From an uncultured Gammaproteobacteria bacterium (GTDB taxonomy: Bacteria > Patescibacteriota > Patescibacteriia > UBA9934 > GWF2-40-263), in contig CAYNRK010000003.1 of NCBI GenBank assembly GCA_964399675.1, positions 9,033-73,032 on the forward strand: 64,000 nt of DNA. Reading direction: 5' to 3'. The position numbers and the translations under genes are program-made. Each line of letters starts with the position of its first letter. Positions within the stretch are counted from its first letter, which is position 1. Positions 20,348 to 42,527 of the stretch are shown here, one piece after another. The notes under the pieces are model-generated. The model worked only from the letters and a program-made list of their open reading frames with translations. It did not search any database and had not been told where the DNA came from.

Positions 20348-20412
20348 GCGTTATTGCGAAGCAATCTTCATATACGAAGATTGCTTCGGCCTTTCAGGCC
20401 TCGCAATGACGC
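20348..20412. repeat. palindromic repeat element (same family) directly after the giant gene; likely acts as its terminator
   Basis: gcgttattgcgaag ... cctcgcaatgacgc form the ends. Perfect 12-bp internal stem gaagcaatcttc-atatac-gaagattgcttc and hairpin ggcc-tttca-ggcc. Confidence 0.85.
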
Positions 20413-20486
20413 ATGAAGTTTTTTGTTTCAATTAGAAAACCCGGTTGCCGAAGCTACCGGGAGTGAAGAGGTTGCAGCGGCCGAAG

Positions 20487-21131: not shown

Positions 21132-21453
21132 CGCTTTACTCCGGTTTCTGCCCCGTTTCCTACTCCAGCCTTGTGCTGAAAGCAGGGCGCGGGTAAACAC
21201 ACTTCTGTATATATTACAAGGGTTTTTTTAAATTTTGTCAAGTCTAAATATGGGATCTTTGCGAATTTTAGGTAAATCGTAAAGAATTTTGTGGATATTC
21301 TCTGGATAAAATTTCAAACAAATTTTTTAAAAACAATCAAGCTTTCATTTAAAATTTTTCTTGGCTCTGATATATTGACATTAGGCGAGAAACGTGATAA
21401 AAAATCGCCTCGTTCCTTTCAACAAACAACCTACAGGAACGGAAGGGAGTAGT

Positions 21454-22398: not shown

Positions 22399-24265
22399 TC
22401 CAGAAGTCCTGATGGGCATGATCCGAGCTCATGGTCGCTTTGAGCCGATCAAGATGGTTGGCGAAGGCGGAATGGGTACCGTGGTCAAGGTTCGCGATCC
22501 TCGCCTGAGGGCAATTCGTGCCATGAAGGTGATCAATCCGGACATGGCTGATCACGATCTGGTCAAGCGTCGGTTTGAGGCTGAGGCAGCCTTGACCGAC
22601 AAGGTGACACATCCCAATATCGTGCGCGTGTACGACATTGGTGAGCTCACACATCCTGACACCGGGATCGAGTTCTTGTACATTGTCATCGAATGGGTCG
22701 ATGGTGGTTCGCTTGCGGATCACATCGAGGCGTTTGGGGCAATGCCGGAACAACAGGCTCTTGCGGTCACGATCGCGATCCTGAATGGGCTCGGGTGTGC
22801 GCACGAAGCCGGTGTTATTCATCGCGACATCAAGCCGGACAACATCCTGCTTACTTCAGGGGAGGTCTCCAAGATCGCGGACTTTGGCATTGCTCAAGGT
22901 CAGGACGCTACTCACAAAACCCGGTCTGGTATCGCACTAGGAACCATTGGGTTCATGCCTCCTGAGCAGATGATCGACGCAGCTTCTGTGGACGCTCGCG
23001 CTGATCTCTACGCCGTAGGGATGACTCTGTGGAACATGCTTAGCGGCAAAAGGCCGCCGAGCGATAATCTGGTCTGGTATCTCAATTTCCTGAGCGAAGC
23101 TTGGGTCATGGAGGGAATCGATCACCAGCTGGTTGCAGTCCTCAAAAGGGCCTGTGCAGAAAAGCCGGCGGGTCGATACCAGAGCTGTGCAGAGCTTGTC
23201 CAGGTTCTCACACAAGCGCTTGGCTCGTTCGGCGCACTCAGTCAAGGCACCCCTCTTCTGGGCAGCATGCCTGAGATGGTGGTCGAGGCAACCGGCCTTG
23301 TTCCAGGTGTGGCCAGGATGGTGGCTGCAATCGATGCGGTTGATGACGACCTGCCGTTTGAGCCACCTGCTGGTTCGGTCAGGCTTCAGCCTTCAGGGGG
23401 ACAGGTCGACGCCACTGTTCGGAATCCTGCCACTGAGATAGCTGGATCCCCACCTCTTCTTGTCAGCAGCACACCTCCACCGAGCGTGAGTTCTCAGCCT
23501 AGTGTGCGCGCAGCAACAGATCCGCACAGGGATCTTGCGTACGCACACACCCACGTGGCTTCAGCAGACAGCGTGCCCAGCACTGGAACGCTTGCAGAAG
23601 CTGCTGGTGAGACCATTCGCAATGGTGACCTCGATGTGCCAGGCTCTGTCACCAAGGGGCGACGTTCAGCCGGAATCCTGGCTGTGGCAGCGCTTGCGCT
23701 GCTTGGTGGCCTGGCTTCGCTCGCGGTCTTCGGTATTCCGCGGCTCACCAGCGAGTCACCTGGACATGCTGCTACTCAGACTGATCCGCAGGTGACTCAG
23801 CCAACCGCGCCGGTTGCTCGTGCAGTCATCACACCACAGCCGGCAACACCTCTCGAAGAGGTGCCAAAGCCTGAGCGTCCATCAGTTGCATCTGGGTACG
23901 GTGCAAAGGTGGCGAGTGGCAAAGCACCAGAGATCAGTGTGGGGCCAAAGGAAGAGGTTCCCAAGCCTGCTTCAAAGGCAAAGAAGAAGGCCAGGAAGAA
24001 GCGCAAGAAGCGCAAAAAGGCCAAGGCAGCTGTTGAGGCAAAGGTCCGTGTTGGACTCAAGCTTCCAGCAAATGACCCGGCCAAGGTCTGGTTGGTTGGC
24101 AAAGCTGGTACGTCCAAGTTGCCGGCCAAGGTGCCTCCTGGCACTTACAAGGTCAAGGCCAAGTTCAAGGATCGGCCACCCAAGGTGGTCATCTCCTCAT
24201 ACACGGTTCAGGCCGGCAGCACGCCGCGCCTGAAGTGCTCATCCTCGTTTGCACGCTGCAAGTGA
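22388..24265 (+). CDS. Hanks-type Ser/Thr protein kinase with Pro-rich linker, single TM helix and Lys-rich C-terminal tail
   Basis: Gly-loop VGEGGMGTVVKV, catalytic HRDIKPDNILL, DFG (KIADFGIAQ). TM segment AGILAVAALALLGGLASLAVFG; KKKARKKRKKRKKAK tail. GC about 60%. Confidence 0.85.
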   Translation: MFDDPEVLMGMIRAHGRFEPIKMVGEGGMGTVVKVRDPRLRAIRAMKVINPDMADHDLVKRRFEAEAALTDKVTHPNIVRVYDIGELTHPDTGIEFLYIVIEWVDGGSLADHIEAFGAMPEQQALAVTIAILNGLGCAHEAGVIHRDIKPDNILLTSGEVSKIADFGIAQGQDATHKTRSGIALGTIGFMPPEQMIDAASVDARADLYAVGMTLWNMLSGKRPPSDNLVWYLNFLSEAWVMEGIDHQLVAVLKRACAEKPAGRYQSCAELVQVLTQALGSFGALSQGTPLLGSMPEMVVEATGLVPGVARMVAAIDAVDDDLPFEPPAGSVRLQPSGGQVDATVRNPATEIAGSPPLLVSSTPPPSVSSQPSVRAATDPHRDLAYAHTHVASADSVPSTGTLAEAAGETIRNGDLDVPGSVTKGRRSAGILAVAALALLGGLASLAVFGIPRLTSESPGHAATQTDPQVTQPTAPVARAVITPQPATPLEEVPKPERPSVASGYGAKVASGKAPEISVGPKEEVPKPASKAKKKARKKRKKRKKAKAAVEAKVRVGLKLPANDPAKVWLVGKAGTSKLPAKVPPGTYKVKAKFKDRPPKVVISSYTVQAGSTPRLKCSSSFARCK

Positions 24266-24285
24266 GAGATCGGGCACAACTCTCA

Positions 24286-24308
24286 GCGAGACTTCGGTCT
24301 CGCTTTTC
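24286..24308 (+). terminator. rho-independent terminator (agcgagac-ttcg-gtctcgct-TTTT)
   Basis: Perfect 8-bp stem with UUCG loop and U-tract, 20 nt after the kinase stop. Confidence 0.7.
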
Positions 24309-26136: not shown

Positions 26137-28125
26137 ATGAACACGCTCAGAATTCGGTTTTTCTTTTACTTCCTCTGTGCTCAGGCCTTCTTGGCGTTTG
26201 TGATGATCATGATGGCCTGCACAGAGTCGGTGGATGTCTCCTCAAGAGAGCATTCATTCGAAGGTGGTGGTGTCTACAGGACAACGATCCATCTTCCCGG
26301 TTCGCCAGCAGTGGAGCTTCAGTGCGTGCAAGGTGTTGGCGGTTCCTACTCGCACACTTCTCGATCGACCTACTACGATATCGATCTTGACACCTCGAAC
26401 ATCCGTGATGAGAGCGTGTACGCGCCGGCTGATGGGATCGCTTTCGTTCATATGCACAACTCGCATATGAACTTTGGAAAGCATGTGAACATTGACCTGG
26501 GCGATGGCACGTACGTGGTGATTGCGCACATGTCAAAGATCGTGGTCTCTGACAACGCTGAAGTGGCAACCGGACAGCTACTAGGGCTTGAAGGATGCAC
26601 TGGATCCTGCACAGGCGATCACATTCATGTCGGTCTTCACAGAGGGAATGCGGCTCAACCTGCGCAGTATGGTGAGTCTGTTCCTGTTCGATACCATGTA
26701 GCGGATAACACAGAGCCGCGCGGACACAAGCCGCTTGATGTTGAAGAGACGGTCTGTGGTCTCCGAGCATTCGGAGACAACCAAAACGGGCAGTTCTATA
26801 CCTCTGCACTTGACGTAACGCTTTTCCATCCAAACGGCACGCTTGTGAAGACGTCAAACAACGCACGTGTGTATCTCATTGACAACGGTCAATTGCGACA
26901 CATTGCAAACGAACGAACGTTTCACTCATACGGCTACAGTTTCATGGACGTTGCCATCATTTCAGATGAAGAACGCTCATGTTACCCCGAGGGTCCCGTG
27001 CTTGACCTTGTGGGTATGGTGGATGCTGTTACGGATGACAACGATCAGATTTGGCTACTGGTTGGTCCAAGGCAAAGGAGCGACCGGTATCGTATCCGCG
27101 TCAGAAACGAAGCGTTTGAGCAGGTGCTTGAGTCCTGGGGAGTCAACGTTGGTCTTCAAGGACCTCGACAGGTTCGCTCAAATGCACGCGAGCTTGCTCA
27201 GTGGCCTGTGAGATCCGGAACAGCTCGATTCCGAGATGGAAGTCTTGTCAGAGAGCAAGATCGTTCGGATGTCTATCTGATCTCAGACTCTGTTGCGCTT
27301 CCGATTGCGAACTGGCAGACGTATCTGCGTCTTGGGTTTTACGATCGACAAGTGCTCATGGTTGGAAACGGTGAGCTAGCACAGGTTCAGCGAGCAGCTG
27401 GCAATTGCCTGGTGGGCAGCAACTGCTTGGACGGATACAACATCAGTGTGTGCGGAAACGACTTGAGGCTGGATCTCAGGCATGAGTCAGACACCAGCGG
27501 CGATCTACAAGTTGCTGGATTTCGTGAAAACGAAAACGAGGAACACAATGGCGAAAAAGAAGAGCAAGAAGGTGATGGGGAGAGTGAGGAGGAGGTGGTT
27601 GCAGGTACCACTCTGGACGAAAGCGAGGATGAAGAACGTGAGATTGAAGCAGGTGTAACTCCTCTTTGCAACGGCCAGGACGCATGCCTACACGACAACG
27701 ACGGTGATGACAAGGCCGAGTTCCTTCTGATGCGAAATCATCAGTGGTTGAATCCGGACTTGCACGATGAGTTCGCGGTTGTTTACGGCAACGGAGGTTG
27801 CTTTAACAATCGTTTCGAGCCAGGTGACGTTTTCTATCCAAGAGACGGTTACTACTGGATCGATTTCACTGTCTTTGACAGACCGTGCAGCAGTGAGCTC
27901 ACACTCATCTCTGTGGTCGGCACTGACGGCGAAGATCCACGTCCTTCAATGGACAACTGGTACTGGTGGCAGAATGCACCGTTCTGTTCGCAAGGCTCCA
28001 TGCTTTGCAATCTCATGAACAACGGTGTGCCATGGGAAGAGTGGTTGGTTTCGGTTGCCTGGCATCCGGATCAAGGCCTCTTGCCAAACGGCAACGGCTT
28101 CACACGAAATACTCAGCTTCACTGA
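26137..28125 (+). CDS. secreted M23-family (LytM-like) peptidoglycan metalloendopeptidase, high-GC gene with acidic E/D-rich region
   Basis: Signal peptide. HxxxD (SHTSRSTYYDIDLD) and HxH (GDHIHVGLH) zinc-site motifs typical of M23. RBS AGGAGAGAGG. GC about 55%, against about 38% in flanking genes. Confidence 0.7.
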   Translation: MNTLRIRFFFYFLCAQAFLAFVMIMMACTESVDVSSREHSFEGGGVYRTTIHLPGSPAVELQCVQGVGGSYSHTSRSTYYDIDLDTSNIRDESVYAPADGIAFVHMHNSHMNFGKHVNIDLGDGTYVVIAHMSKIVVSDNAEVATGQLLGLEGCTGSCTGDHIHVGLHRGNAAQPAQYGESVPVRYHVADNTEPRGHKPLDVEETVCGLRAFGDNQNGQFYTSALDVTLFHPNGTLVKTSNNARVYLIDNGQLRHIANERTFHSYGYSFMDVAIISDEERSCYPEGPVLDLVGMVDAVTDDNDQIWLLVGPRQRSDRYRIRVRNEAFEQVLESWGVNVGLQGPRQVRSNARELAQWPVRSGTARFRDGSLVREQDRSDVYLISDSVALPIANWQTYLRLGFYDRQVLMVGNGELAQVQRAAGNCLVGSNCLDGYNISVCGNDLRLDLRHESDTSGDLQVAGFRENENEEHNGEKEEQEGDGESEEEVVAGTTLDESEDEEREIEAGVTPLCNGQDACLHDNDGDDKAEFLLMRNHQWLNPDLHDEFAVVYGNGGCFNNRFEPGDVFYPRDGYYWIDFTVFDRPCSSELTLISVVGTDGEDPRPSMDNWYWWQNAPFCSQGSMLCNLMNNGVPWEEWLVSVAWHPDQGLLPNGNGFTRNTQLH

Positions 28126-31196: not shown

Positions 31197-32834
31197 ATGA
31201 CTGACACTTCGTCACAACAGACCCAACAAGTTAGCGAGGAGGTTCGTGAGTATTTGTGGTCTGATGAAGTGTATAAAAGATATGCAGAGACTGCTTTGAA
31301 TCATGGGTTAACAAATGGTTTGCGTGGTGTTGGGTCTATTATGTTGCAGCTTGTTGAAGGAAAGTTGCAAATAAATGATTTGCCTGGAAAGTTGGTTGAG
31401 GTTTTAAAGGTTGATGCAGAAGCTGCAAAGCGAATAAGTCTTGAGCTTGCGCAAACAGTTCTCGTTCAAATCGCTGATAGCATTTCAGGGCTTGATGAAG
31501 TTGTTTTGGTCTGGGGGGGAGAATTGCCAGAGACTAAAGAAAAGCCGGAAAAATTTGTAGATAATTATTTGAAAGGTTTAATTGGTCTTTCAGATAAACA
31601 CATGCATGATCGGTTTGCGTCGTTTTTGGTGAAGCTTATTCGCAAGGAGCGCTCACATGATGAAACAGTCCAGATGATGATGCGGCCAATTAAAGTTGCG
31701 GGATTGGGCCTTGGACAAGTTGAGGCGGAAAAGTTGTTGGATCAGTTTGGGGAGAAAGTTAAGGGGGTTGAGTTTGAGGGGGAAGAGGTCCGAGAGGTAA
31801 AAGAGGTCCGAGAGGGAGAAGATGTTTTGACAGAGCCTGTTGTTGAGGCGTTTGGTGTAGAAGATGCGCGGGAAATTGAGGAAATAAAAAAGTCAGGACC
31901 GGATCTTTCACCTCCAGATAATTTTGAATCAGTGGAAGAAGTTGTTGATACTATCTGTGATCATGAAGTTTTTGATCTTTCAGATAATGTATTAAATAGT
32001 CGGTGTAAAAAAATTATTGATTCCAGAGTACGAGGAGTTAGAGATGCATTTGAAACAAGGAAAAAGTTAGAGCGGCCTACTGATAAAGGCGGGCTTGGGC
32101 TTTCCGGGAGAAAATTAGCAGATATGATGGAGTTTTTAGAAAAGAGTTTGCAAGTGTATCAGAAGAGTCATACAAAACATGTTGAAACAAAGAGAGCTGA
32201 GCATGGTGCAACTCAACAAGAACAAAAACAGCAAAAAGAACAACTCAAGAAAAAAGAAGAGCAAGTTTTGTCAAAGCGATATGCGTCCTTAACCGGCAAG
32301 GCTCCGACAGAGTCAGTAAAGCCGGCAGCCCCACCTCTTGGACGAGCAAGTGTTTCAGTTTCAGCTCAACAACAAATTAATCAGCAAGAAGAAAAAATCA
32401 ACACACAGCGAGTTAGGGGTGCGATTGAAAGTGCAAAAGCTAAGCAGCCTGCAAAGCCTCAGCCAAAAAAGGTTAAGCCAAACATGTCTGATGTTAAATT
32501 TGAGCGAAGGCTTTCAAGTCCCATTGATGAACTTCGTACCATGGATCTAAAAGATTTTAGACGTTTAGCTTCAGATGCTGCGCAAGCAGCTACAAAGATT
32601 AAGGACAAAGTACGTTTAATGGAAGATCAGGGTTATGAAAAAAAGATTGAAGCAATCAAAGCTTGGCGTGAGTCACCTGTGAATCAATTATATGTTAAGT
32701 ATTCGCGTGAGGCACTTCTTAATGGCAAAGCACTTGCAGATGTTTTAAAAAGCCATCAAGACGTTGGCAAGGACGCACTTACTGACAAAGAACTTAAAGC
32801 AATAATGAAGATTAATACGGACTTGCGTTTCTAG
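31197..32834 (+). CDS. hypothetical hydrophilic K/E-rich protein in the T4SS-like locus
   Basis: 545-aa ORF with no TM segments and a coiled-coil-like middle. Tightly packed between the VirB6-like and VirB3-like genes. Confidence 0.5.
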   Translation: MTDTSSQQTQQVSEEVREYLWSDEVYKRYAETALNHGLTNGLRGVGSIMLQLVEGKLQINDLPGKLVEVLKVDAEAAKRISLELAQTVLVQIADSISGLDEVVLVWGGELPETKEKPEKFVDNYLKGLIGLSDKHMHDRFASFLVKLIRKERSHDETVQMMMRPIKVAGLGLGQVEAEKLLDQFGEKVKGVEFEGEEVREVKEVREGEDVLTEPVVEAFGVEDAREIEEIKKSGPDLSPPDNFESVEEVVDTICDHEVFDLSDNVLNSRCKKIIDSRVRGVRDAFETRKKLERPTDKGGLGLSGRKLADMMEFLEKSLQVYQKSHTKHVETKRAEHGATQQEQKQQKEQLKKKEEQVLSKRYASLTGKAPTESVKPAAPPLGRASVSVSAQQQINQQEEKINTQRVRGAIESAKAKQPAKPQPKKVKPNMSDVKFERRLSSPIDELRTMDLKDFRRLASDAAQAATKIKDKVRLMEDQGYEKKIEAIKAWRESPVNQLYVKYSREALLNGKALADVLKSHQDVGKDALTDKELKAIMKINTDLRF

Positions 32835-32838
32835 ATGT

Positions 32839-33273
32839 ATGCCAGAGCAGTTCACAATCCCACAATTTATTGAGTCAGAAGATAAAATTTTTGGGCCTGT
32901 AACAGCCAGGCAATTTATTATTGTCATGGTTGTTGGGCTTGTAGAGTTTATTTTGTTTAAGGCGATTTCTTTTGTCATATTCTTACTGATAGGTATTCCG
33001 TTTTTTGCTCTTGGAATGATTTTCGCATTTGCCAAAGTCAATGGTCAGCCTTTTCACTACTTTATGTTAAACTTAATTCAGACATTTAAAAAACCATCAC
33101 TGCGAGTTTGGGATAAGACCCTGACGGATTCTGAAATTAAATTTATTATAAAAAAGGTTGAGGAGATTCCACCTGAAGCGCCAAAACGAAAAACAAGATT
33201 AGGTAAATCAAGACTTCAAGAACTTACCCTTGTTGTGAATACAGGCGGTGTATATAAACCAGACGAGAACTAG
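32839..33273 (+). CDS. small two-TM membrane protein (VirB3/PrgI-like) immediately preceding VirB4
   Basis: 144 aa with a hydrophobic hairpin (FIIVMVVGLVEFILF / FVIFLLIGIPFFALGMIFAF). Positioned as in Gram-positive-type T4SS operons. Confidence 0.4.
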   Translation: MPEQFTIPQFIESEDKIFGPVTARQFIIVMVVGLVEFILFKAISFVIFLLIGIPFFALGMIFAFAKVNGQPFHYFMLNLIQTFKKPSLRVWDKTLTDSEIKFIIKKVEEIPPEAPKRKTRLGKSRLQELTLVVNTGGVYKPDEN

Positions 33274-33274
33274 T

Positions 33275-33955
33275 ATGCAATCCAAAAAACTTGCAAAACC
33301 AAAACCAGGACCATCAACGCAGCGCTTTCTTGACATTGCTGAGATTCGAGACGACTTGGTTGTACTAAAAGACGGAACAGTTCGCGGTTTGCTTTTGGTT
33401 TCCAGTATTAACTTCGCACTCAAGTCTGTTGATGAACAAGAGGCAGTTATTCAGGCTTACATGATGTTTCTTAATGGTCTGGAATATCCGATTCAGATTG
33501 TGATTCAATCGCGTCGCATGAACATTGATCCATATATGCAACGGCTTGCAGAACAGCAACGGGCAACTGGGAATGATTTACTTCGTGCGCAAATTTCAGA
33601 TTACAGAAATTTTGTTCAGGAACTTGTTGAACTTGGACAGATAATGCAAAAGCGATTTTATATGGTTGTGCCTTATGATCCTGTTTCTGACAAGAAAAAG
33701 AATTTCTGGACGAGATTTTCCTCGGTTCTTTCACCAGCAGCTTCTTCAAAACTAAACAAAAAACAATTTGAAGAGCGGGCTGAACAACTGTCTCGTCGAA
33801 TTAATGTTGTTATTGGTCAACTCAATGGCATGGGGCTTGCGTCTGTTCGTATGGACACGCAAAGTCTTATTGAGCTTTATTATAATGCTTATAATCCAGA
33901 TCTTTTTGAAAGTGAGAAGCTGGCAGATCTGTCACAAATTCGTCACGAAGAATAA
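33275..33955 (+). CDS. VirB4/TrbE-family N-terminal domain, separated from the ATPase part by a single in-frame TAA
   Basis: ...DIAEIRDDLVVLKDGTVRGLLLVSSINFALKSVDEQEAVIQAYMMFLNGLEYPIQIVIQSRRMNI... matches the CagE/TrbE/VirB4 N-terminal pattern. It is in the same reading frame as 33959..36043. Confidence 0.55.
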   Translation: MQSKKLAKPKPGPSTQRFLDIAEIRDDLVVLKDGTVRGLLLVSSINFALKSVDEQEAVIQAYMMFLNGLEYPIQIVIQSRRMNIDPYMQRLAEQQRATGNDLLRAQISDYRNFVQELVELGQIMQKRFYMVVPYDPVSDKKKNFWTRFSSVLSPAASSKLNKKQFEERAEQLSRRINVVIGQLNGMGLASVRMDTQSLIELYYNAYNPDLFESEKLADLSQIRHEE

Positions 33956-33958
33956 TCT

Positions 33959-36043
33959 ATGCCACTTGATATAGGACAAGTAAAAAAAGCCATGCCAGCA
34001 CCGGCTCCAAAGAAACCAGTTAAATTAAAGCCGGAAGAGGTAAAGGTTAAGCAAGAAAAGCTCGTTTTAGAAGAGGAGCGAATTTATCGTCGGGGTGTTG
34101 TAACTGTTAAAGATGTTATTGCTCCTGCGGCATTTCAAGTCAATCCAAGGCACCTTTTACTTTCAGGTGTTTATGTGCAAACGCTTTTCATTATTACTTA
34201 CCCGCGTCACATTGGTATTGGTTGGGCAACGCCGCTTATTAATTTGAATAAAACTTTTGATGTTGCAATGTTTTTTTATCCACTCAAAGCAAACATTGTA
34301 CTCAAACAGCTTCAGAAAAAAGTTGGTGTGTTTGAGGCAAAGGTTCTGGGTGATGCTGAAAAAGGTGCGCCGCGTGATCCAATTGCTGAGACTGCATTAC
34401 GTGACATTGAGGCGCTTCGCGATGCACTTACGCAAGGGATTGAACATTTTTTCCAATTTGCTTTTTACATTACAATTTACGCAAAGAGTCAGGACGAACT
34501 TGATAAATATGCACAAGAAGTTGAAGCGCTGTTTGGGAGCAAGTTGATTTATACAAAGACTGGTTTTTATCAAACCGAACAAGGATTTAATTCCACAATC
34601 CCGCTTGGTAATGATGAGATCATGATTACCTATAACATGAACACATCGCCAATAGCAGCATCCTTCCCGTTTGTGAGTTCTGATGTTTCTTCTGATGATG
34701 GAATTTTGTATGGGATTAATAGACACAACAACTCGCTTATCTTGTTTGATCGGTTTAGTTTGCAAAACGCTAACTCGGTTGTGTTTGCTACTTCTGGTGC
34801 TGGAAAGTCCTATGCTATTAAACTTGAGATTTTGCGAAGCTTGATGATGGGAACAGATGTGATTGTGATTGATCCTGAAATGGAATATAAAGATTTGTCT
34901 GACGCAACCGGAGGAACATATATTAATGTGTCACTTGCTTCGGATGCAAAAGTTAATCCGTTTGATTTGCCGCGCGCGGTTGGAGAGGGTACAAAAGTTG
35001 AAGATATAATTAGAAGCGCTGTTATTACTCTTAAGGGTCTTTTGCGTATTATGATCGGAAAGCCGCAAGGGGCTTCCGGCACTCTTGGTTTCACACCAGA
35101 GGAAGATTCCATGCTTGACCAAGCGCTTATTGAGACATTTGCGAAAAAAGACATCACACCTGATATTACGGATTTATCCAATGTAGAAGCTCCGATTTTT
35201 TCTGATTTTCAAGATGTGCTTGAAGGTATGGAAGGGGCTGATGATTTAGTAGCACGGTTGCGCAAATATACTGAAGGTACATTTTCCGGACTTCTTAATT
35301 CTCCAACAACTGTTGAGATGGATAATCAGCTTGTAGTCTTTTCTGTGCGAGATTTAGAAGATGAGCTTAGGCCTGTTGGAATTTATTCCATTGTTAATTA
35401 TATTTGGAATGTTGTGCGTTCTGTGCGAAAGAAGCGAATCATGGTTATTGATGAGGCTTGGTGGCTGATGCAACAGGAAGATTCTGCTAAGTTTATTTTT
35501 GCACTTGTAAAGCGTTGTAGAAAATACTTCATGGGAGTCACAACAATCACGCAAGATGTTAATGACTTTTTGCGCTCGCCTTATGGTCAGGCGATTGTAA
35601 CAAACTCCTCGCTCCAAATTTTGCTTAAGCAATCTACGTCCGCGATTGATCTCGTTCAAAAGACGTTTAATTTAACGGATGGAGAAAAGTATTTACTTTT
35701 GGAATCAGGTATTGGAGAAGGAATTTTCTTTGCCGGACAAAAGCACGCGGCAATTAAAATTATTGCTTCTTATACTGAAGATCAAATTGTTACAACAAAT
35801 CCGGCACAGCTTTTGGAGATTGAAGAGGCAAAGAAAGAGTTTGAGGCGCAGCTTGAAGAGAAGGGTGGAGGAGAGGTAGCCCCAGGCTTTAGCCTGGGCG
35901 AAGATGTCGAAGGGGAGGAAAAGATTACAGTTAATGAAGCTCAAAAAGAAGCGCAAGCACAAGACGCTGCTTCAGCACTTTTGTCACAAGAAGATGCCGG
36001 CAAAGCCGAAGCAGATAAAATTCGCGATTCACTTACCATATGA
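33959..36043 (+). CDS. VirB4/TraC-like conjugative-transfer ATPase, C-terminal ATPase portion
   Basis: Walker A VFATSGAGKSYAIK; Walker B RIMVIDEAWWLM (DEAW); 694 aa. Together with the preceding ORF, about 930 aa. Confidence 0.75.
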   Translation: MPLDIGQVKKAMPAPAPKKPVKLKPEEVKVKQEKLVLEEERIYRRGVVTVKDVIAPAAFQVNPRHLLLSGVYVQTLFIITYPRHIGIGWATPLINLNKTFDVAMFFYPLKANIVLKQLQKKVGVFEAKVLGDAEKGAPRDPIAETALRDIEALRDALTQGIEHFFQFAFYITIYAKSQDELDKYAQEVEALFGSKLIYTKTGFYQTEQGFNSTIPLGNDEIMITYNMNTSPIAASFPFVSSDVSSDDGILYGINRHNNSLILFDRFSLQNANSVVFATSGAGKSYAIKLEILRSLMMGTDVIVIDPEMEYKDLSDATGGTYINVSLASDAKVNPFDLPRAVGEGTKVEDIIRSAVITLKGLLRIMIGKPQGASGTLGFTPEEDSMLDQALIETFAKKDITPDITDLSNVEAPIFSDFQDVLEGMEGADDLVARLRKYTEGTFSGLLNSPTTVEMDNQLVVFSVRDLEDELRPVGIYSIVNYIWNVVRSVRKKRIMVIDEAWWLMQQEDSAKFIFALVKRCRKYFMGVTTITQDVNDFLRSPYGQAIVTNSSLQILLKQSTSAIDLVQKTFNLTDGEKYLLLESGIGEGIFFAGQKHAAIKIIASYTEDQIVTTNPAQLLEIEEAKKEFEAQLEEKGGGEVAPGFSLGEDVEGEEKITVNEAQKEAQAQDAASALLSQEDAGKAEADKIRDSLTI

Positions 36044-36633
36044 TTACACCTGAAAAACGACGAACTATTATAGTATTGATCATTGTTTTGCTCTTTTTAA
36101 TTTTCTTTTTTACTGGTTTTTTTCTTTTAACAAGATCAACAGACTCTCCTGCGTCGTTGCGAGGAGCCGAAGGCGACGAAGCAATCTCCGTAACTGAAGA
36201 ACAAATGCTTGAATCAGAAAAAAATAATCAAGAGACCCGATTAGAGCAAGAACAAGCAGAACGCAATGAAACAAGTAATGTTACTTCACTATCCAAAACT
36301 TTTGTTGAGCGTTATGGAAGTTATTCAACAGAAGCGAATTTCCAAAATCTTAGAGATGTTTTACCACTCATGACTTCTTCGTTTGCTGCAAGAACCGAGC
36401 AATTTATTTCAACTGCTAAAACACCTTCTGAATATTATGGAGTGAGCACTGATGTGATTACAGTTAATGTTGAGGTGATGGAAGAGGATGAATCCGCCAT
36501 AGTTCTTATAACAACACAAAGAGAAGAGGCAAAAGGATTGCCCGGTAATGTATCAATAAAATATCAGGATGTTCGTGTGGAATATTTATTTGAATCTGGT
36601 TCATGGAAAGTCAACTCAGCCGATTGGTTGTAG
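36040..36633 (+). CDS. bitopic membrane protein (N-terminal TM + ~150-aa external domain); possible VirB8-like component
   Basis: TM segment IIVLIIVLLFLIFFFTGFFLL followed by a soluble domain. 4-nt overlap with the VirB4 stop. Confidence 0.4.
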   Translation: MITPEKRRTIIVLIIVLLFLIFFFTGFFLLTRSTDSPASLRGAEGDEAISVTEEQMLESEKNNQETRLEQEQAERNETSNVTSLSKTFVERYGSYSTEANFQNLRDVLPLMTSSFAARTEQFISTAKTPSEYYGVSTDVITVNVEVMEEDESAIVLITTQREEAKGLPGNVSIKYQDVRVEYLFESGSWKVNSADWL

Positions 36634-37292
36634 AAAGCGTTTTCCCGCGTTTTTGCGTTGGGTGCCGGAGGGAAGGGTCGCTGTGGTGTGAGATTTGCGA
36701 TGAACTTCAGGTTCAATTTTTTTTATCTCCATCATGTCCGTTTTGTTCACGCAAAGGTTCTAATAGAACTTGTCAGGATTGTAAGTCCTACACATATCTC
36801 GATGGACTAACAGCAATGGGGCCGTACGCGAATACAAAAATTAAAGAAGCAATTAAATTGTGGAAGTATTATCAGGACAGATTTATTGAACCAATAATTT
36901 TTAAGTGGCTGCAACAGGAGCTGTCAAGAATGAATCTTCCAATCATGCCGTTTTATGCAACGCACGTTCCACTGCATTTTAAAAAAGAACGAGAGCGTGG
37001 CTTTGATCAGGCAAGGTGTGTTGCTGAGTGGACTGAAAAGCTGTTTGGGATTTTTGTTGAAGATTTGCTTGTAAGGCAGGTTCGTACAGTCTCACAAGCC
37101 AGACAGGAAACAAGAAAGATAGGGGAGTTGGATCACATTTTTGAAATCCATCCGGATGTAGTTGAGGTTCCAGAAAATATCTTGTTATGTGATGATGTGT
37201 TTACATCCGGTGCTACAATGGACGCAGCTGCCAGGCGTCTCAAGGAGTCTGGGGCTAAAATGGTTTGGGGGTTTGTGGTTGCAAGGAAATAA
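36603..37292 (+). CDS. comFC: competence protein ComFC (zinc-finger + phosphoribosyltransferase domain)
   Basis: N-terminal Cys clusters (CVGCRREGSLWCEICDELQ...CPFCSRKGSNRTCQDCKSY). PRTase motif LLCDDVFTSGATMDAA. Confidence 0.75.
   Translation: MESQLSRLVVESVFPRFCVGCRREGSLWCEICDELQVQFFLSPSCPFCSRKGSNRTCQDCKSYTYLDGLTAMGPYANTKIKEAIKLWKYYQDRFIEPIIFKWLQQELSRMNLPIMPFYATHVPLHFKKERERGFDQARCVAEWTEKLFGIFVEDLLVRQVRTVSQARQETRKIGELDHIFEIHPDVVEVPENILLCDDVFTSGATMDAAARRLKESGAKMVWGFVVARK
37263..37286 (+). repeat. left copy of a 25-bp direct repeat (gtttgggggtttgtggttgcaagg), forming the 3' end of comFC
   Basis: About 21/24 nt identical to 38163..38187. Encodes VWGFVVARK*. Confidence 0.7.
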
Positions 37293-37314
37293 GTTTAATT
37301 CTCCAAAAATAACT

Positions 37315-38154
37315 ATGTCTAAAAAAGGCAACTCAATTATACTTTTTCATGAAAAACAAGTTCGTCGTTATTGGGATGAGGAAGATGAACTTTGGTATTT
37401 TTCGATTGTGGATGTTCTTGAAGTTTTAACAGGAAATACAAGACCGAGAAAATATTGGAATGATTTAAAAAAGAAGCTGTTGCTTGAGGGCAGTCAGTTG
37501 TCCGAAAAAATCGGACAACTGAAAATGCAGTCATCTGATGGAAAATTTTATAAAACTGATGTTTTGGATACGGAAAATTTATTGAGACTTATTCAATCGG
37601 TGCCGTCTCCAAAAGCAGAGCCATTGAAACTTTGGCTTGCCCAAGTTGGTTACGAGCGAATTGAAGAAACCGAAGATCCTGAACTTGCTTTTGACCGAGC
37701 AATGCAAACCTATTTGCAAAAAGGCTATTCCAAAGACTGGATAAATCAAAGACTTAAAACAATCGAAGTTCGCAAAGAACTCACAGATGAGTGGAAAGAA
37801 CGAGGAGTTAAAGAAGGTTTAGAATTTGCTATTTTGACGGATGAAATTACCAAAGCTTGGTCTGGAAAGTCTGTAAAACAGTACAAAAAGTTTAAAGATC
37901 TTAAAAAGCAAAACTTGAGAGACAACATGACCAATCTTGAACTTATTTTGAACATGCTTGCCGAAGCGACAACGACCGAAATTTCAAAAGAAAAAGAGCC
38001 AAAGACTTTATTGGAAAGCAAGGGAATTGCAAGAGAGGGAGGAGAGACAGCAGGAAAAGCAAGAAAAGATATTGAAAAGAAAATAGGGAAAAATGTTATT
38101 TCTTCCAAAAGCGTAAAAGAGTTAAAAAATTCAAAACAAGATCTACTTCAGTAA
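37315..38154 (+). CDS. Bro-N domain protein (phage antirepressor / DinD-like)
   Basis: N-terminal ...ILFHEKQVRRYWDEEDELWYFSIVDVLEVLTG... matches the Bro-N pattern. The ATG at 37315 follows the comFC stop. Confidence 0.6.
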   Translation: MSKKGNSIILFHEKQVRRYWDEEDELWYFSIVDVLEVLTGNTRPRKYWNDLKKKLLLEGSQLSEKIGQLKMQSSDGKFYKTDVLDTENLLRLIQSVPSPKAEPLKLWLAQVGYERIEETEDPELAFDRAMQTYLQKGYSKDWINQRLKTIEVRKELTDEWKERGVKEGLEFAILTDEITKAWSGKSVKQYKKFKDLKKQNLRDNMTNLELILNMLAEATTTEISKEKEPKTLLESKGIAREGGETAGKARKDIEKKIGKNVISSKSVKELKNSKQDLLQ

Positions 38155-39258: not shown

Positions 39259-39352
39259 GGAGAGGTACCCAAGCGGCTCAAGGGGACGGTTTGCTAAACC
39301 GTTAGATCGGATTATATCCGGTGCGAGGGTTCGAATCCCTCCCTCTCCGCCA
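39259..39352 (+). tRNA. tRNA-Ser (anticodon GCU), long variable arm, encoded CCA
   Basis: Acceptor ggagagg/cctctcc; anticodon stem-loop acggt-ttGCTaa-accgt; T-arm gttcgaatc; CCA end. Confidence 0.85.
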
Positions 39353-39450
39353 CCCTACGCTTCAACAGTATTATTTATTGTTGAAGCGTAGGGTGTCACC
39401 CGAAGCCTTGGCGAAGGGTGGCCTGAGTGCAGACTAAGTGTTGAAGCTTC
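39353..39450. other. two long hairpins (ccctacgcttcaac-N-gttgaagcgtaggg; cacccgaagc...gcttcgggtg) between tRNA-Ser and the GIY-YIG gene
   Basis: Inverted repeats of 14 and 10 bp read directly. The first abuts the tRNA 3' end. Confidence 0.5.
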
Positions 39451-39459
39451 GGGTGGCCT

Positions 39460-39711
39460 TTGGCCATTAAGTATATGTATTACGTATATCTTCTACGACT
39501 TGCAGATGGTAGTTATTACACAGGAAGCACTCCGGATCTCAAAAAACGTCTAGTAGAGCACGATGGTGGGAAAGCAATATCGACTTCGAATTTGAGGCCG
39601 ATAAAGCTCGTCTGGTATTGTGCGTTTCCAACCCGGATTCAGGCTAGAAGATTTGAGTCGTATCTTAAGACTGGATCTGGGCAGGCGTTTCGAAACAAAA
39701 GAATAGTTTAA
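39460..39711 (+). CDS. GIY-YIG nuclease superfamily small protein (UPF0213/YhbQ-like)
   Basis: YVYLLRLADGSYYTGSTPDLKKRLVEH is a textbook GIY-x10-YTG...R..EH motif. 83 aa. Confidence 0.75.
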   Translation: MAIKYMYYVYLLRLADGSYYTGSTPDLKKRLVEHDGGKAISTSNLRPIKLVWYCAFPTRIQARRFESYLKTGSGQAFRNKRIV

Positions 39712-39714
39712 TAC

Positions 39715-39803
39715 GGAGAGGTGGCCGAGTGGTCGATGGCGCTGGTCTTGAAAACCAGTAGGGTTAATAGCTCTCGTGGGTTCGAATCCCACCCTCTCCG
39801 CCA
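39715..39803 (+). tRNA. tRNA-Ser (anticodon UGA), long variable arm, encoded CCA
   Basis: Same acceptor stem ggagagg; anticodon stem-loop ctggt-ctTGAaa-accag; T-loop ttcgaatc; CCA. Confidence 0.85.
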
Positions 39804-39816
39804 GTATGAAAAATAA

Positions 39817-39840
39817 AAGAAACCTCTGGGTTTCTTTTTG
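39817..39840 (+). terminator. rho-independent terminator (agaaacc-tctg-ggtttct-TTTTG)
   Basis: Stem-loop plus U-tract directly after tRNA-Ser(UGA). Confidence 0.6.
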
Positions 39841-39853
39841 AATTACTCTTGTT

Positions 39854-40378
39854 TTGATGATAAACTATGTGCGTATGCCTGAGAATCCACAAAAGCAAAA
39901 GATTGATATTGGTGCGCCGCTTCTTGCATGGGAAGTGGACGAATATCCAAAATATATTAGGTCTAGATCGTGGTACATTATCATGGTAGTTTTTGGTGCT
40001 GCGCTTATTATCTATTCAATTGCTACTGCTAATTTTTTGTTTGCGATTATTGTGCTCATGACAGGGGTTATCATGCTTCTTTCAACGTTTAAAAATCCAG
40101 GTCGGGTTAGTATTCTTATTACAACAACAGGTCTTGTTGTAAGTGATATGTATTATGATTTTGAGGCGATTTCGGATTTTTCAATTGTTTACGAACCACC
40201 AGAGATAAAGAATCTTTACTTTGATTTTGTTTCGCCATGGCAACCAATTTTATCTATTCCGCTTGAAGAAATGAACCCAAATGATGTGCGCGAGTATTTA
40301 CTTCCGTTTTGTGCTGAAAACTTGGAGCGCACAGAAGAGGAGTTGACAGACATGGTTCGCAGGTTGTATAAGTTGTAA
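39854..40378 (+). CDS. hypothetical membrane protein (two TM helices)
   Basis: 174-aa ORF with hydrophobic segments WYIIMVVFGAALIIYSIATANFLFAIIVLMTGVIMLL. Confidence 0.5.
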   Translation: MMINYVRMPENPQKQKIDIGAPLLAWEVDEYPKYIRSRSWYIIMVVFGAALIIYSIATANFLFAIIVLMTGVIMLLSTFKNPGRVSILITTTGLVVSDMYYDFEAISDFSIVYEPPEIKNLYFDFVSPWQPILSIPLEEMNPNDVREYLLPFCAENLERTEEELTDMVRRLYKL

Positions 40379-40384
40379 ACCTAG

Positions 40385-40461
40385 GCGCCCGTAGCTCAGC
40401 TGGATAGAGCATCGGCTTGCGGAGCCGGAGGTCGTAGGTTCGAATCCTGCCGGGCGCACCA
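40385..40461 (+). tRNA. tRNA-Arg (anticodon read as GCG; G37), encoded CCA
   Basis: gcgcccgtagctcagctggatagagc-a-tcggc-ttGCGga-gccgg-aggtc-gtaggttcgaatcctgc-cgggcgc-acca. Closely resembles the E. coli tRNA-Arg backbone. Confidence 0.8.
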
Positions 40462-40523: not shown

Positions 40524-42527
40524 ATGGGGCTTCATTTGAATTCATCAGTTGCTGAACTTCCGGGAATTGGCGGAAAGGCAGAAAAAGACCTTAAGAATCT
40601 CGGGATTATTAGTATTAGAGATCTTTTGTGGTATGTGCCATTTCGATACGATGATTACTCTTTAAGCAAACCTATTAATGAATTGAGAAGCGGGGATCAG
40701 GTTACGCTGACCGGAGAAGTAACTTCCATTCATAGTCGACTAGCAAAAAACAAGAAAGTAACAATTACAGAAGCTGAATTTGAAACTGGTGAGGGATCAA
40801 TTAAAGTTATTTGGTTTAATCAACCTTATTTGGAAAAGCAGTTGAAACCAGGTCGTAGAATTTCATTGGCCGGGCGTATTGATCATAGATTTGGTATGTC
40901 ACTTATGAATCCTATTTATGAACCAGAAGGTAAACAAATTCATACCGGACGGATCGTTCCGGTTTATGGTTTGTCCGGGTCGCTTACAATGCGACGTTTG
41001 AGAGCTGCCATACACACCGCACTTAACGCAACTGATGAGATGGACGATTGGATTCCAAAAGATATTCTTGATAAGGAATCGTTTCCAGTTTTGTCAGATG
41101 CTATTGCAAACGTTCACTTTCCAGAAAGCCAAGAGGTTCTAAATCGATCAATTGAGCGCATAAAGTTTGGTGAGCTTTTTTTGCATCAACTCATGTTTGC
41201 AGAAATTAGAGAGGATAGAAAAAAACGTTCAACTCATTCGATTGCCACTGATGAATCTTACTTGAAACAATTTGTTGCTCAACTGCCGTTTGAGTTAACA
41301 AAAGCTCAGCGTGTTTCTGCTTGGGAGATTGTTCAGGATATTTCTTCTGTGATTCCGATGAACCGTTTGTTGGAAGGAGATGTTGGATCTGGAAAAACTG
41401 TTGTCGCAGCTATTGCAGCAGCACAGGTTTTAAAACACGGTCACTCAGTTGCGTATTTAGCCCCAACAGAAATATTAGCTGAGCAACAATACGAAGTTTT
41501 ATCTGACACATTAAAAGATTTTTCCGTTGGTCTTCGGACTCGAACACAAAAGGAAGATGTTAAAGGCTCGTCTGTATGCATTGTTGGAACACACGCGCTT
41601 TTGCAAGAGGGGATTAAGATTCCAAATCTAGCTTTGGTCATTGTTGATGAACAGCACAGGTTTGGAGTGAAGCAGCGGCACGCTCTTCTTGAAAGAGATC
41701 CCGCCCCCCATCTTCTTTCAATGACCGCAACGCCAATTCCGAGATCATTGGCGCTTTCACTTTATGGAGATCTTGATCTTTCAATTTTAAACGAACTTCC
41801 AAAAGGCAGAAAACCTGTTGCAACAGCAATTGTAGAAAAGTCTCACCAACCAGGAATGTGGTCCCACATAAAATCACAAATAAGTTACGGCCGTCAGTTA
41901 TTTGTGATTTGTCCTCTTATTGATCCTTCAGATAAACTTGGTTCGAAATCAGTAACTGATGCAGAAAAAGAGCTAAAAAGCGGATCTTTAAAAGAGTTTT
42001 CAATTGAAGTTTTACATGGCAAACTTAAAACAGAAGAAAAGCAGGAGAGGATGAAAAGTTTTCAAAAAGGAAAGACTGATGTGTTGATTTCAACAACAGT
42101 GGTTGAGGTTGGGGTTGATATTCCAAATGCTTCCACAATGGTCATTCTTGGCGCAGAACGATTTGGACTTGCCCAACTACATCAATTAAGAGGACGTGTT
42201 GGTCGGTCAGATGTTCAATCTTATTGTTATCTTTTACCTGACACATTATCTTCAATTTCAGAAAAACGTTTGAAAGCAATGGTTGAAACAACAGACGGAT
42301 TTAAACTTGCAGAAGTTGATTTGGAACTTCGTGGACCTGGGAATATTTTTGGAAATTCACAATCAGGTTTTCCGGATTTTCGTTTAGCTACAGTTGCAGA
42401 TGTGGAACTTATGAAAAAAGCGCATGATTGGTCTGATCTAATACTCAAAGATGATCCTGAACTTGAAAACAATCCTTTGCTTAGACAAAAAGTAAAAACA
42501 GACTTTGCGTCTGTTCACTTGGAATAA
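40524..42527 (+). CDS. recG: ATP-dependent DNA helicase RecG
   Basis: Wedge/OB N-terminus. Helicase motifs DVGSGKTVVAAIA, VIVDEQHRFGV, HQLRGRVGRSD. 667 aa. Confidence 0.92.
   Translation: MGLHLNSSVAELPGIGGKAEKDLKNLGIISIRDLLWYVPFRYDDYSLSKPINELRSGDQVTLTGEVTSIHSRLAKNKKVTITEAEFETGEGSIKVIWFNQPYLEKQLKPGRRISLAGRIDHRFGMSLMNPIYEPEGKQIHTGRIVPVYGLSGSLTMRRLRAAIHTALNATDEMDDWIPKDILDKESFPVLSDAIANVHFPESQEVLNRSIERIKFGELFLHQLMFAEIREDRKKRSTHSIATDESYLKQFVAQLPFELTKAQRVSAWEIVQDISSVIPMNRLLEGDVGSGKTVVAAIAAAQVLKHGHSVAYLAPTEILAEQQYEVLSDTLKDFSVGLRTRTQKEDVKGSSVCIVGTHALLQEGIKIPNLALVIVDEQHRFGVKQRHALLERDPAPHLLSMTATPIPRSLALSLYGDLDLSILNELPKGRKPVATAIVEKSHQPGMWSHIKSQISYGRQLFVICPLIDPSDKLGSKSVTDAEKELKSGSLKEFSIEVLHGKLKTEEKQERMKSFQKGKTDVLISTTVVEVGVDIPNASTMVILGAERFGLAQLHQLRGRVGRSDVQSYCYLLPDTLSSISEKRLKAMVETTDGFKLAEVDLELRGPGNIFGNSQSGFPDFRLATVADVELMKKAHDWSDLILKDDPELENNPLLRQKVKTDFASVHLE

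Follow-up and report, generated by a model that had tools for sequence, protein, structure and literature searches.

A two-gene VirB4 in a chromosomal T4SS locus of Patescibacteria: a TrsD-like protein encoded ahead of a shortened ATPase

The window, that is, the whole stretch of 64,000 nucleotides that was analysed, contains a T4SS locus whose central part is formed by two consecutive genes, ORF1 and ORF2 (Table 1). The stop codon of prgI is located 1 nt ahead of the ORF1 start and a TrbL/VirB6-like protein is encoded further upstream, so that ORF2 lies alongside T4SS membrane components. For the VirB6/TrbL-like gene, we kept the start called in the public assembly (28230), the mechanical ORF starting at 27966; a TrbL_3 protein occupies the matching position in the loci encoding fused proteins described below. 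The charged protein encoded between this gene and prgI had no match in Pfam and NCBIfam searches. Downstream, the gene of the 197-aa protein, a possible candidate for a VirB8/PrgL-like subunit, shares 4 nt (ATGA) with the end of virB4. No relaxase was seen near ORF1 and ORF2, and the Rfam and tRNA scans detected three tRNA genes, none of them at the junction of the two ORFs. ABY1-class loci typically have comF beside the T4SS, and recG has likewise been described near it there (PMC12102498).

Table 1. Features of the T4SS locus and its surroundings (positions in the window).
Feature	Position	Strand	Evidence
VirB6/TrbL-like large membrane protein, 977 aa	28230..31163	+	Pfam TrbL PF04610, E 5.6e-5, just under gathering score
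Charged protein, 545 aa, conserved in operon	31197..32834	+	539-aa counterpart at the same position in locus L090
PrgI (VirB3-like) small membrane protein, 144 aa	32839..33273	+	Pfam PrgI PF12666, E 7.7e-10, above cut-off; hydrophobic segment
ORF1, TrsD-like / TraC-like (PF26593) protein, 226 aa	33275..33955	+	N-terminal VirB4-model alignments; PF26593; hhalign to TrsD
Gene junction TAA-TCT-ATG	33953..33961	+	ORF1 stop, 3-nt spacer, ORF2 start; same in 8 assemblies; 80-locus survey
ORF2, VirB4/TraC-type T4SS ATPase without first N-terminal subdomain, 694 aa	33959..36043	+	P-loop_TraG; conju_CD1110; PDB 4ag5; Foldseek TrwK/VirB4
Walker A motif SGAGKS, ORF2 residues 279-284	34793..34810	+	Translation; conserved in alignment A3
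Walker B motif IMVIDE, ORF2 residues 494-499	35438..35455	+	Translation; conserved in alignment A3
Protein with N-terminal transmembrane segment, 197 aa	36040..36633	+	Same place in independent assemblies
ComF-like protein (double zinc ribbon + phosphoribosyltransferase)	36603..37292	+	Weak Pfam matches DZR_2, Pribosyltran
RecG helicase, chromosomal context marker	40524..42527	+	Pfam RecG_wedge (5.6e-24), Helicase_C, DEAD

The junction between the two ORFs reads ...CAC GAA GAA TAA TCT ATG CCA..., in which the TAA occupies positions 33953-33955, the spacer TCT positions 33956-33958 and the ATG begins at 33959; the purine-rich GAAGAA ahead of this ATG is a weak Shine-Dalgarno match. The initial annotation had described both ORFs at the positions of Table 1, in the same frame and with only TAA-TCT-ATG between them, and our coordinates agree, the distance between the two starts (33959-33275) being 684 nt, or 3 × 228. 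It had also recognised a VirB4 N-terminal motif in ORF1, present as KDGTVRGLLLVSSINFALKSVDEQEAVIQAYMMFLNGLEYPIQI, and a Walker A/B ATPase in ORF2, both motifs of which we read in the translation. Four explanations had been offered for this arrangement, one of them being that the TAA was created by a sequencing or assembly error. Nothing beyond the prior possibility of such an error speaks for it, whereas the exact protein was found on 17 contigs and the junction CGTCACGAAGAATAATCTATGCC is unchanged at eight loci that differ in sequencing run and assembler (ENA, Logan). With the same junction in eight independent assemblies, an error is extremely improbable.

ORF2 starts with a tail rich in Lys and Pro (residues ~1-45), continues with the second half of the N-terminal domain (~46-265) and then the P-loop ATPase (268-581), and ends in an acidic tail. 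The Pfam P-loop_TraG match (E 3.4e-29) starts at residue 268, and residues 241-612 align with the VirB4 C-terminal domain of PDB 4ag5 (E 2.1e-45). In alignment A3, S279, G280, G282, K283 and S284 of the Walker A motif are invariant and A281 is nearly so (90% or more); D498 and E499 of the Walker B motif are invariant as well. The protein scores 329.3 bits against the NCBIfam model conju_CD1110 (cut-off 325), of which only positions 170-730 of 752 are covered, while TIGR00929 aligns residues 70-580 to VirB4 positions 239-724. The complete N-terminal domain is therefore not in ORF2: the first ~170-290 model positions are missing in every full-length model, and ORF1 matches them. The break had initially been placed between the N-terminal and ATPase domains. 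In contrast, from the TIGR00929 and P-loop_TraG alignments, ORF2 keeps about 220 residues of the N-terminal domain before the P-loop domain, and the break interrupts the N-terminal domain itself, in a flexible linker.

ORF1 aligns with positions 92-239 of the 894 of the VirB4_plasma model (E 7.8e-9, NCBIfam profile search), 25-103 of the 752 of conju_CD1110 and 58-174 of the 375 of Pfam TraC_F_IV. It also matches positions 24-141 of the 201 of the TrsD model NF041427 (E 8.2e-5), and the profile of its family aligns with the TrsD of pGO1 over 175 columns (hhalign probability 85.8%, E 5e-6, 23% identity over the aligned TrsD columns). The PF26593 assignment is precomputed for P0001, a protein identical to ORF1, and for all its close homologues, and is absent from the output of our local Pfam scan. 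The 226 aa of ORF1 and its placement between prgI and virB4 fit the TrsD family, whose members are soluble, measure about 200-230 aa and are encoded between a VirB3-like gene and virB4. From these profile comparisons, ORF1 is probably a member of the TraC-like family of Patescibacteria and a relative of plasmid TrsD, a remote one since its NCBIfam TrsD score is far under the cut-off (22.5 vs 200 bits). PDB sequence searches with ORF1 and with the TrsD-like family profile retrieved no meaningful match. The AlphaFold2 model of ORF1 alone, built from a shallow alignment of 20 sequences, is poor (pLDDT 51.7), and TrwK/VirB4 chains rank first in the Foldseek search with this model at a non-significant E of 0.14, which is suggestive at most.

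We also considered ORF1 as a duplicate of the N-terminal region of ORF2 and rejected it, as a comparison of the TrsD-like profile (91 sequences) with that of the ORF2 family in hhalign gave a probability of 0.1% and BLASTP retrieved nothing. In the model of the concatenated proteins, the order of secondary-structure elements is alike in ORF1 and in the N-terminal region of ORF2; this matching order prompts the speculative and rather doubtful idea that the VirB4 N-terminal domain derives from an ancient tandem duplication.

Together, the two proteins follow the full-length VirB4 in order, ORF1 corresponding to the first ~200 residues of the full-length models and ORF2 to the remainder. Behind the segments matched by ORF1, ORF2 covers positions 289-890 of VirB4_plasma and 170-730 of conju_CD1110; the SCO6880 family model likewise spans both (234-290 for ORF1, 365-476 for ORF2). 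Moreover, natural fusions exist: about 68 clusters of TraC-like-VirB4 proteins of 820-910 aa, carrying PF26593 and VirB4 domains, are found in Berkelbacteria and Saccharimonadales (P0245, P0391-P0459). For both alignment and modelling, ORF1 and ORF2 were simply concatenated. The fused proteins align with the concatenated pair end to end (43-48% identity), the junction falling within a variable Pro/Ala-rich linker, and their genes directly follow prgI, in the same slot as the split pair. The model of the concatenated proteins has a disordered segment at 213-273, and in the PDB it is best matched by full-length TrwK/VirB4, with 921-939 columns aligned (Foldseek, E 2.9e-25); with a pTM of 0.44 and an rmsd of ~24 A to TrwK, its inter-domain geometry is unreliable and only the collinear coverage counts.

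The comparison with orthologues, suggested as a check by the initial annotation, found the split kept at the same place in related species. In our locus survey, all 80 related species-level genomes encode a separate small gene with its stop, followed by an ATPase gene with its own conserved start. The spacer between the two genes measures 1-173 nt (median 5), reaching 75-173 nt in 20 of the 80 relatives, and the stop codon of the small gene is TAA (42 loci), TAG (26) or TGA (12). The downstream start is ATG in 79 loci and GTG in one, the ATPases beginning with M[APS][IF] and showing a conserved MAIDIG/MPLDIG N-terminus among related loci. Both halves are 59-87% identical in protein to their counterparts in related species and strongly conserved; numerous positions are invariant, among them positions of Walker A and B. 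ORF1 has 4967 homologues, the best 120 of which are stand-alone proteins of 225-267 aa (69-87% identical); among the best 150 representatives of 50% clusters, 149 are 132-443 aa long and one has 898 aa. Similarly, the best 120 homologues of ORF2 measure 630-739 aa and none is fused. Some ORF1 homologues (P0147, P0175) carry low-complexity C-terminal tails of ~200 aa. The split is conserved and its parts are collinear with a VirB4 that also occurs naturally fused.

These observations bear on the idea that a recent nonsense mutation inactivated a formerly single virB4. An in-frame stop within a family that usually forms one polypeptide would fit such a pseudogene, which would be expected to have uninterrupted orthologues. 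Instead, each of the 80 related species shares the two-gene layout, as do homologues in the thousands, the best 120 homologues of each half stand alone, and both the products and the downstream start are conserved; we give this pseudogene next to no credence. Nor is a functional split VirB4 unusual, as had first been supposed: Patescibacteria as a rule encode VirB4 in separate genes (4967 homologues of the small protein here; 2272 TrsD homologues in PMC12102498), and the arrangement also occurs in pGO1-class Gram-positive plasmids.

The last of the initial alternatives, low-level read-through of the in-frame TAA yielding a minor fused isoform of 105 kDa in this genome, draws on the common frame, on the single sense codon separating stop and start, and on the fused proteins being functional in other lineages. 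Nevertheless, the relative frames of the two genes are distributed 18/27/35 over the 80 loci, only the 18 being in frame. Since adjacent genes share their frame one time in three, this is within chance, indeed below the expected third, and the shared frame of ORF1 and ORF2 is coincidental and plays no part in recoding. A TAA followed by T, as at this junction, is an efficient termination signal in E. coli. With neither frame nor stop codon conserved, spacers ranging from 1 to 173 nt and an independent downstream start in 80 of 80 loci, read-through is highly unlikely.

Thus, among the four initial alternatives, the two-subunit VirB4 with probable translational coupling is the one retained, on the grounds of the conserved split, the collinearity and the fusions, and the other three are set aside. 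We consider it very probable that ORF1 and ORF2 are both genuine genes, each translated separately, of the chromosomal T4SS of a member of the Patescibacteria (Uhrbacteria-like), and that their products jointly correspond to what is elsewhere one VirB4. In the N-terminal domain of VirB4, the ORF1 product (26 kDa) would represent the first half and the ORF2 product (78 kDa), which also carries the P-loop motor, the second. As the break lies in a linker that is flexible and of low complexity, either part could fold alone. The tightly packed prgI, trsD and virB4 (spacers of 1 and 3 nt) would be co-transcribed and probably translationally coupled, although the long spacers of 20 of the 80 relatives indicate that coupling is no general requirement. 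The TrsD-like protein would then dock non-covalently onto the N-terminal region of VirB4 and restore, jointly with the VirB3-like PrgI, the platform next to the membrane. In R388, the VirB4 N-terminal domain is where the tails of VirB3 and VirB8 bind and where VirB4 dimerises (PMC9259494). Association of the two proteins, their coupling and a role in docking to PrgI and the membrane all appear plausible here.

TrsD is a remote homologue of the VirB4 N-terminus and the most abundant T4SS component in Patescibacteria, where 1664 of 2272 TrsD homologues adjoin virB4 (PMC12102498, Quinonero-Coronel et al. 2025). According to the same source, which cites Wang et al. 2023, it is essential in Ca. Southlakia epibionticum. 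The homologues of Gracilibacteria are reported away from virB4 (PMC12102498), which leaves room for some functional independence of TrsD. The TrsD-like protein could be an independent accessory factor (a regulator, chaperone or adaptor) that only descends from the VirB4 N-terminus and does not complete the VirB4 fold. The literature assigns TrsD no function, and the Gracilibacteria genes, the long tails of some homologues and the long intergenic spacers at 20 of the 80 loci would agree with this. In contrast, the matches of ORF1 and ORF2 on four full-length VirB4-type models follow each other in order and do not overlap, conserved natural fusions occupy the same genomic slot, and the segment supplied by ORF1 is consistently missing from ORF2 and its homologues. 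An accessory factor of this kind is therefore unlikely, and we keep to the reading of two parts of one VirB4.

The main relevance of the locus is to annotation: flagging a frameshift, a pseudogene or recoding at this junction would be wrong, and "hypothetical" should give way to TrsD-like / VirB4 N-terminal-subdomain protein as the name of the 226-aa product. The naturally occurring split and fused forms mark a domain boundary within the N-terminal domain of VirB4, which could guide the design of constructs for structural studies of the Patescibacteria T4SS, an essential system that is poorly understood. A more speculative idea, which we regard as doubtful, is that the split is more than a neutral boundary: the first-half N-terminal module would be autonomous, and its separate expression would control docking of the motor onto PrgI and the membrane. 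If so, docking of VirB4 could be controlled by stoichiometry or assembly order, for example, and the recurrence of fission and fusion, with separate genes in most lineages and a fused one in Berkelbacteria, would point to a functional hinge. Overall, our results are a small addition to published knowledge and no discovery.

Compared with the full-length VirB4 (TrwK of R388, TraC of F, and the CD1110 and Mbov_0397 types), the whole protein is collinear with ORF1 plus ORF2 and the ATPase domain is clearly homologous. However, those proteins are single polypeptides of ~750-900 aa, whereas in our locus a gene of its own encodes the first ~200 residues. The Berkelbacteria/Saccharimonadales-like fused proteins, not mentioned in PMC12102498, share the domains, their order and the position after prgI, in a single ORF with a Pro/Ala-rich linker of 70-100 aa instead of the stop, spacer and start found here. 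The VirB3-VirB4 fusions of some conjugative systems represent the opposite event, fusion and not fission, and none was found in Patescibacteria; they show that the module of VirB3, VirB4 N-terminal domain and motor tolerates varied gene boundaries. Among plasmids, pIP501 TraD and pELF TraD were discarded as comparisons, their literature concerning other proteins. TrsC-TrsD-TrsE of Staphylococcus aureus pGO1 (MPF_FATA, pGO1 subclass) show the same order and similar sizes (135/227/672 aa vs 144/226/694 aa here), and TrsE aligns with ORF2 from the N-terminal region onward (E 4e-38); nevertheless, pGO1 is a conjugative plasmid with relaxase and coupling protein, while the present locus is chromosomal, with no relaxase seen. 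The closest known system is the chromosomal TrsD-VirB4 pair of Patescibacteria (CPR), in which, as here, a small TrsD-like gene lies directly upstream of a VirB4 of ~650-700 aa and is preceded by PrgI/VirB3. This pair has no nearby relaxase, and the comF and recG neighbours fit the ABY1-class layout (PMC12102498). Nothing substantive separates the two, and the two-polypeptide VirB4 reported here is genuine and already known, an instance of the TrsD beside virB4 described in Patescibacteria in 2025 (PMC12102498).

The initial annotation had described one virB4 gene interrupted by a single in-frame TAA and had considered a two-subunit VirB4 with translational coupling, a nonsense pseudogene, a sequencing error and stop-codon read-through. 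The window sequence confirms both ORFs and the location of the break: at the junction (CAC GAA GAA TAA TCT ATG CCA, 33944-33964), ORF1, which encodes a TrsD-like protein, and ORF2 are separated by TAA-TCT-ATG, with start codons 684 nt apart and thus in one reading frame. The N-terminal VirB4 motif reported earlier is present in translated ORF1, and Walker A (SGAGKS) and Walker B (IMVIDE) motifs in ORF2. Since one in three pairs of adjacent ORFs would share a frame by chance, the common frame is unremarkable by itself.

Coordinates of the features discussed (window positions)
Feature	Position	Strand	Remarks
3226-aa ORF	10657-20337	+	rich in Asp/Gly/Ser/Asn
Ser/Thr protein kinase	22271-24265		Pkinase, 3e-41
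prgI	32839-33273		VirB3-like small membrane protein
ORF1	33275-33955	+	226 aa
ORF2	33959-36043	+	694 aa
First look-alike region	33335-33900		residues 21-206 of concatenated model
Second look-alike region	34130-34570		residues 285-431 of concatenated model
197-aa protein	36040-36633	+	start overlaps virB4 stop (ATGA)
ComF-like gene	36603-37292	+
Bro-N domain protein	37162-38154	+	Pfam, 3.1e-9
tRNA-Ser(gct), tRNA-Ser(tga), tRNA-Arg(gcg) cluster	39259-40461
recG	40524-42527	+

By its family matches, ORF2 is a VirB4/TraC-type ATPase (Pfam P-loop_TraG, 3.4e-29; NCBIfam conju_CD1110, 329 bits with a cut-off of 325; also VirB4_plasma, TraC-F-type and VirB4_CagE), and it matches the crystal structure of the Thermoanaerobacter VirB4 C-terminal domain (4ag5) at 2e-45. 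In every full-length VirB4 model, its alignment begins only at about position 170-290. The N-terminal stretch that ORF2 lacks is matched by ORF1, at positions 92-239 of VirB4_plasma (E 7.8e-9), 25-103 of conju_CD1110 and 58-174 of Pfam TraC_F_IV, and the SCO6880-family model is covered in order by the last part of ORF1 at positions 234-290 and the first part of ORF2 at 365-476. Therefore, judged from these alignments, the pair is collinear with a single VirB4. ORF1 also matches the stand-alone TrsD/TraD family model (E 8e-5), and an identical database protein is annotated as Pfam PF26593 "TraC-like". The break does not lie between the N-terminal and ATPase domains, as had been proposed, but inside the N-terminal domain: since TIGR00929 pairs ORF2 residue 70 with VirB4 position 239, ORF2 residues ~46-265 still belong to that domain. 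ORF2 has a Lys/Pro-rich N-terminal tail (residues 1-45, 33959-34093) and an acidic C-terminal one (615-694, 35801-36040) closed by the conserved motif ...GKAEADKIRDSL.

The exact 226-aa ORF1 protein occurs on 17 public contigs and the identical junction in eight loci that differ in sequencing run and assembler, which excludes a sequencing error for practical purposes and makes that reading negligible. Of the 4967 ORF1 homologues at E<=1e-3, the top 120 have lengths of 225-267 aa and identities of 69-87%, the named ones mostly from Candidatus Uhrbacteria; the best 120 ORF2 homologues measure 630-739 aa. As the orthologue comparison suggested in the initial annotation, we surveyed the junction in 80 loci, each from a different GTDB species (59-77% identity). 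In all 80, the small gene is closed by a stop codon and the downstream gene begins M-[APS]-[IF]; this conserved split excludes a recent nonsense mutation and leaves a pseudogene with virtually no probability. The spacer is 1-173 nt long (median 5), the genes are in frame in 18 loci, at +1 in 27 and at +2 in 35, and the stops are TAA (42), TAG (26) or TGA (12). As neither frame nor stop identity is conserved, the 80 loci carry no signature of read-through or recoding, and translation across the TAA is very improbable. The in-frame position of the TAA is a coincidence. The survey and the identical junctions thus contradict three of the four original options and favour a conserved split.

Of the best 150 representatives of ORF1 homologues clustered at 50% identity, 149 are 132-443 aa long. 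The remaining one, P0245 (898 aa), a fused TraC-like-VirB4 protein, was the entry point to some 68 clusters whose members are 820-910 aa long, containing PF26593 and VirB4 domains, 56-75% identical to P0245 and, where named, from Candidatus Berkelbacteria or Saccharimonadales. These fused proteins align with concatenated ORF1+ORF2 over the full length (43-48% identity), and the stop-spacer-start of the window maps into their variable, Pro/Ala-rich linker of 70-100 residues. The two fused genes examined, one of which occurs on 13 contigs, directly follow prgI and a VirB6-like gene, matching the slot in the window. These fusions provide "Rosetta stone" evidence that the TrsD-like and VirB4 products act as one functional unit whose boundary lies in a flexible linker.

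An AlphaFold2 model of concatenated ORF1+ORF2, with fused homologues in the input alignment, had a mean pLDDT of 68.5 and a pTM of 0.44. The ORF1 domain is confident (pLDDT of 10-residue blocks mostly 75-88 at residues ~20-140 and 160-210, falling to ~50 in between, at 141-160), followed by a disordered stretch (213-273), a moderately confident second N-terminal region and a good ATPase domain. A PDB comparison of this model ranks full-length TrwK/VirB4 chains from the R388 T4SS first (921-939 columns, E 2.9e-25), ahead of 4ag5, which comprises the C-terminal domain only; because the domain packing is unreliable (rmsd ~24 A), we used only the collinear coverage. The model of ORF1 alone was poor, its top matches being TrwK chains without significance (E 0.14). 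In the concatenated model, the ORF1 domain and the ORF2 N-terminal region have the same order of secondary structure (three short strands, helix, strand, two helices, strand, helix), a hint of tandem duplication within the N-terminal domain of VirB4 in the distant past. When the two families were compared profile against profile, no sequence similarity emerged, leaving a derivation of ORF1 from ORF2's own N-region without sequence support.

The N-terminal domain of VirB4 in R388 (residues 15-400) provides the dimer interface, is wrapped by VirB3 and binds VirB8 tails (PMC9259494; PMC12857230). We propose that the TrsD-like protein would contribute, in trans, the first half of such a platform, associating with the ORF2 N-terminal region and PrgI and thereby anchoring and organising the motor at the membrane. 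Alternatively, it could be an independent accessory factor: it has no assigned function, in Gracilibacteria its gene and virB4 are unlinked, and long tails occur on some homologues. We consider this unlikely. The data establish the conserved split, collinearity and fusions, which support the two-subunit VirB4; association of the two proteins and coupling of their translation are inferred. Many TrsD-like proteins (e.g., the ORF1 homologues P0147 and P0175) have low-complexity, Pro/Ala/Gln-rich C-terminal tails of ~200 residues. As for coupling, the tight packing (4 nt from a 545-aa gene to prgI, 1 nt from prgI to ORF1, 3 nt from ORF1 to ORF2, and a 4-nt overlap of ORF2 with the next gene) favours co-transcription and termination-reinitiation in this genome. 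Nevertheless, spacers of 75-173 nt in 20 of the 80 relatives indicate that coupling is not a family requirement.

The 197-aa protein, with an N-terminal transmembrane segment and a C-terminal domain of ~150 aa that has no Pfam match, would fit a VirB8/PrgL-like subunit in size, topology and position. The Bro-N gene lies between the ComF-like gene and the tRNA cluster; this domain is common in phage and mobile-element proteins. Islands of 52-63% G+C (2698-3579, 20400-24300, 26137-28125; ~40% elsewhere in the window) contain a 293-aa Arg/Ala-rich ORF, the kinase and the ORFs beside it, and a gene for an M23 peptidase; these islands may have been acquired from a foreign source. The peptidase gene lies a short distance upstream of the T4SS cluster, and its product might serve as the VirB1-like cell-wall hydrolase. 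The 3226-aa ORF, some 8 kb ahead of the T4SS genes, could encode a giant surface or adhesin-type protein.

A functional split VirB4 had been regarded as unusual, but ORF1 and ORF2 represent the ordinary, already published two-gene TrsD-like and VirB4 organisation of Patescibacteria T4SS. Quinonero-Coronel et al. (2025; PMC12102498) counted 2272 TrsD homologues, 1664 of them adjoining virB4, and reported TrsD as essential in Ca. Southlakia epibionticum. The text of that study does not mention TrsD-VirB4 fusions; what the present analysis adds is modest, namely the junction statistics together with the Berkelbacteria-type fused proteins, which pin the boundary to a flexible linker. The comF and recG genes common in ABY1-class T4SS loci (PMC12102498) have counterparts in the window. 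On plasmid pGO1, the gene order trsC (135 aa, VirB3-like), trsD (227 aa) and trsE (672 aa, VirB4) corresponds to PrgI (144 aa), ORF1 (226 aa) and ORF2 (694 aa) in the window. A 175-column alignment links pGO1 TrsD to the TrsD-like profile from Patescibacteria (probability 85.8%, E 5e-6), and the alignment of ORF2 with TrsE (E 4e-38) begins at residue 52 versus 36, so that both ATPases begin at the same point of the fold.
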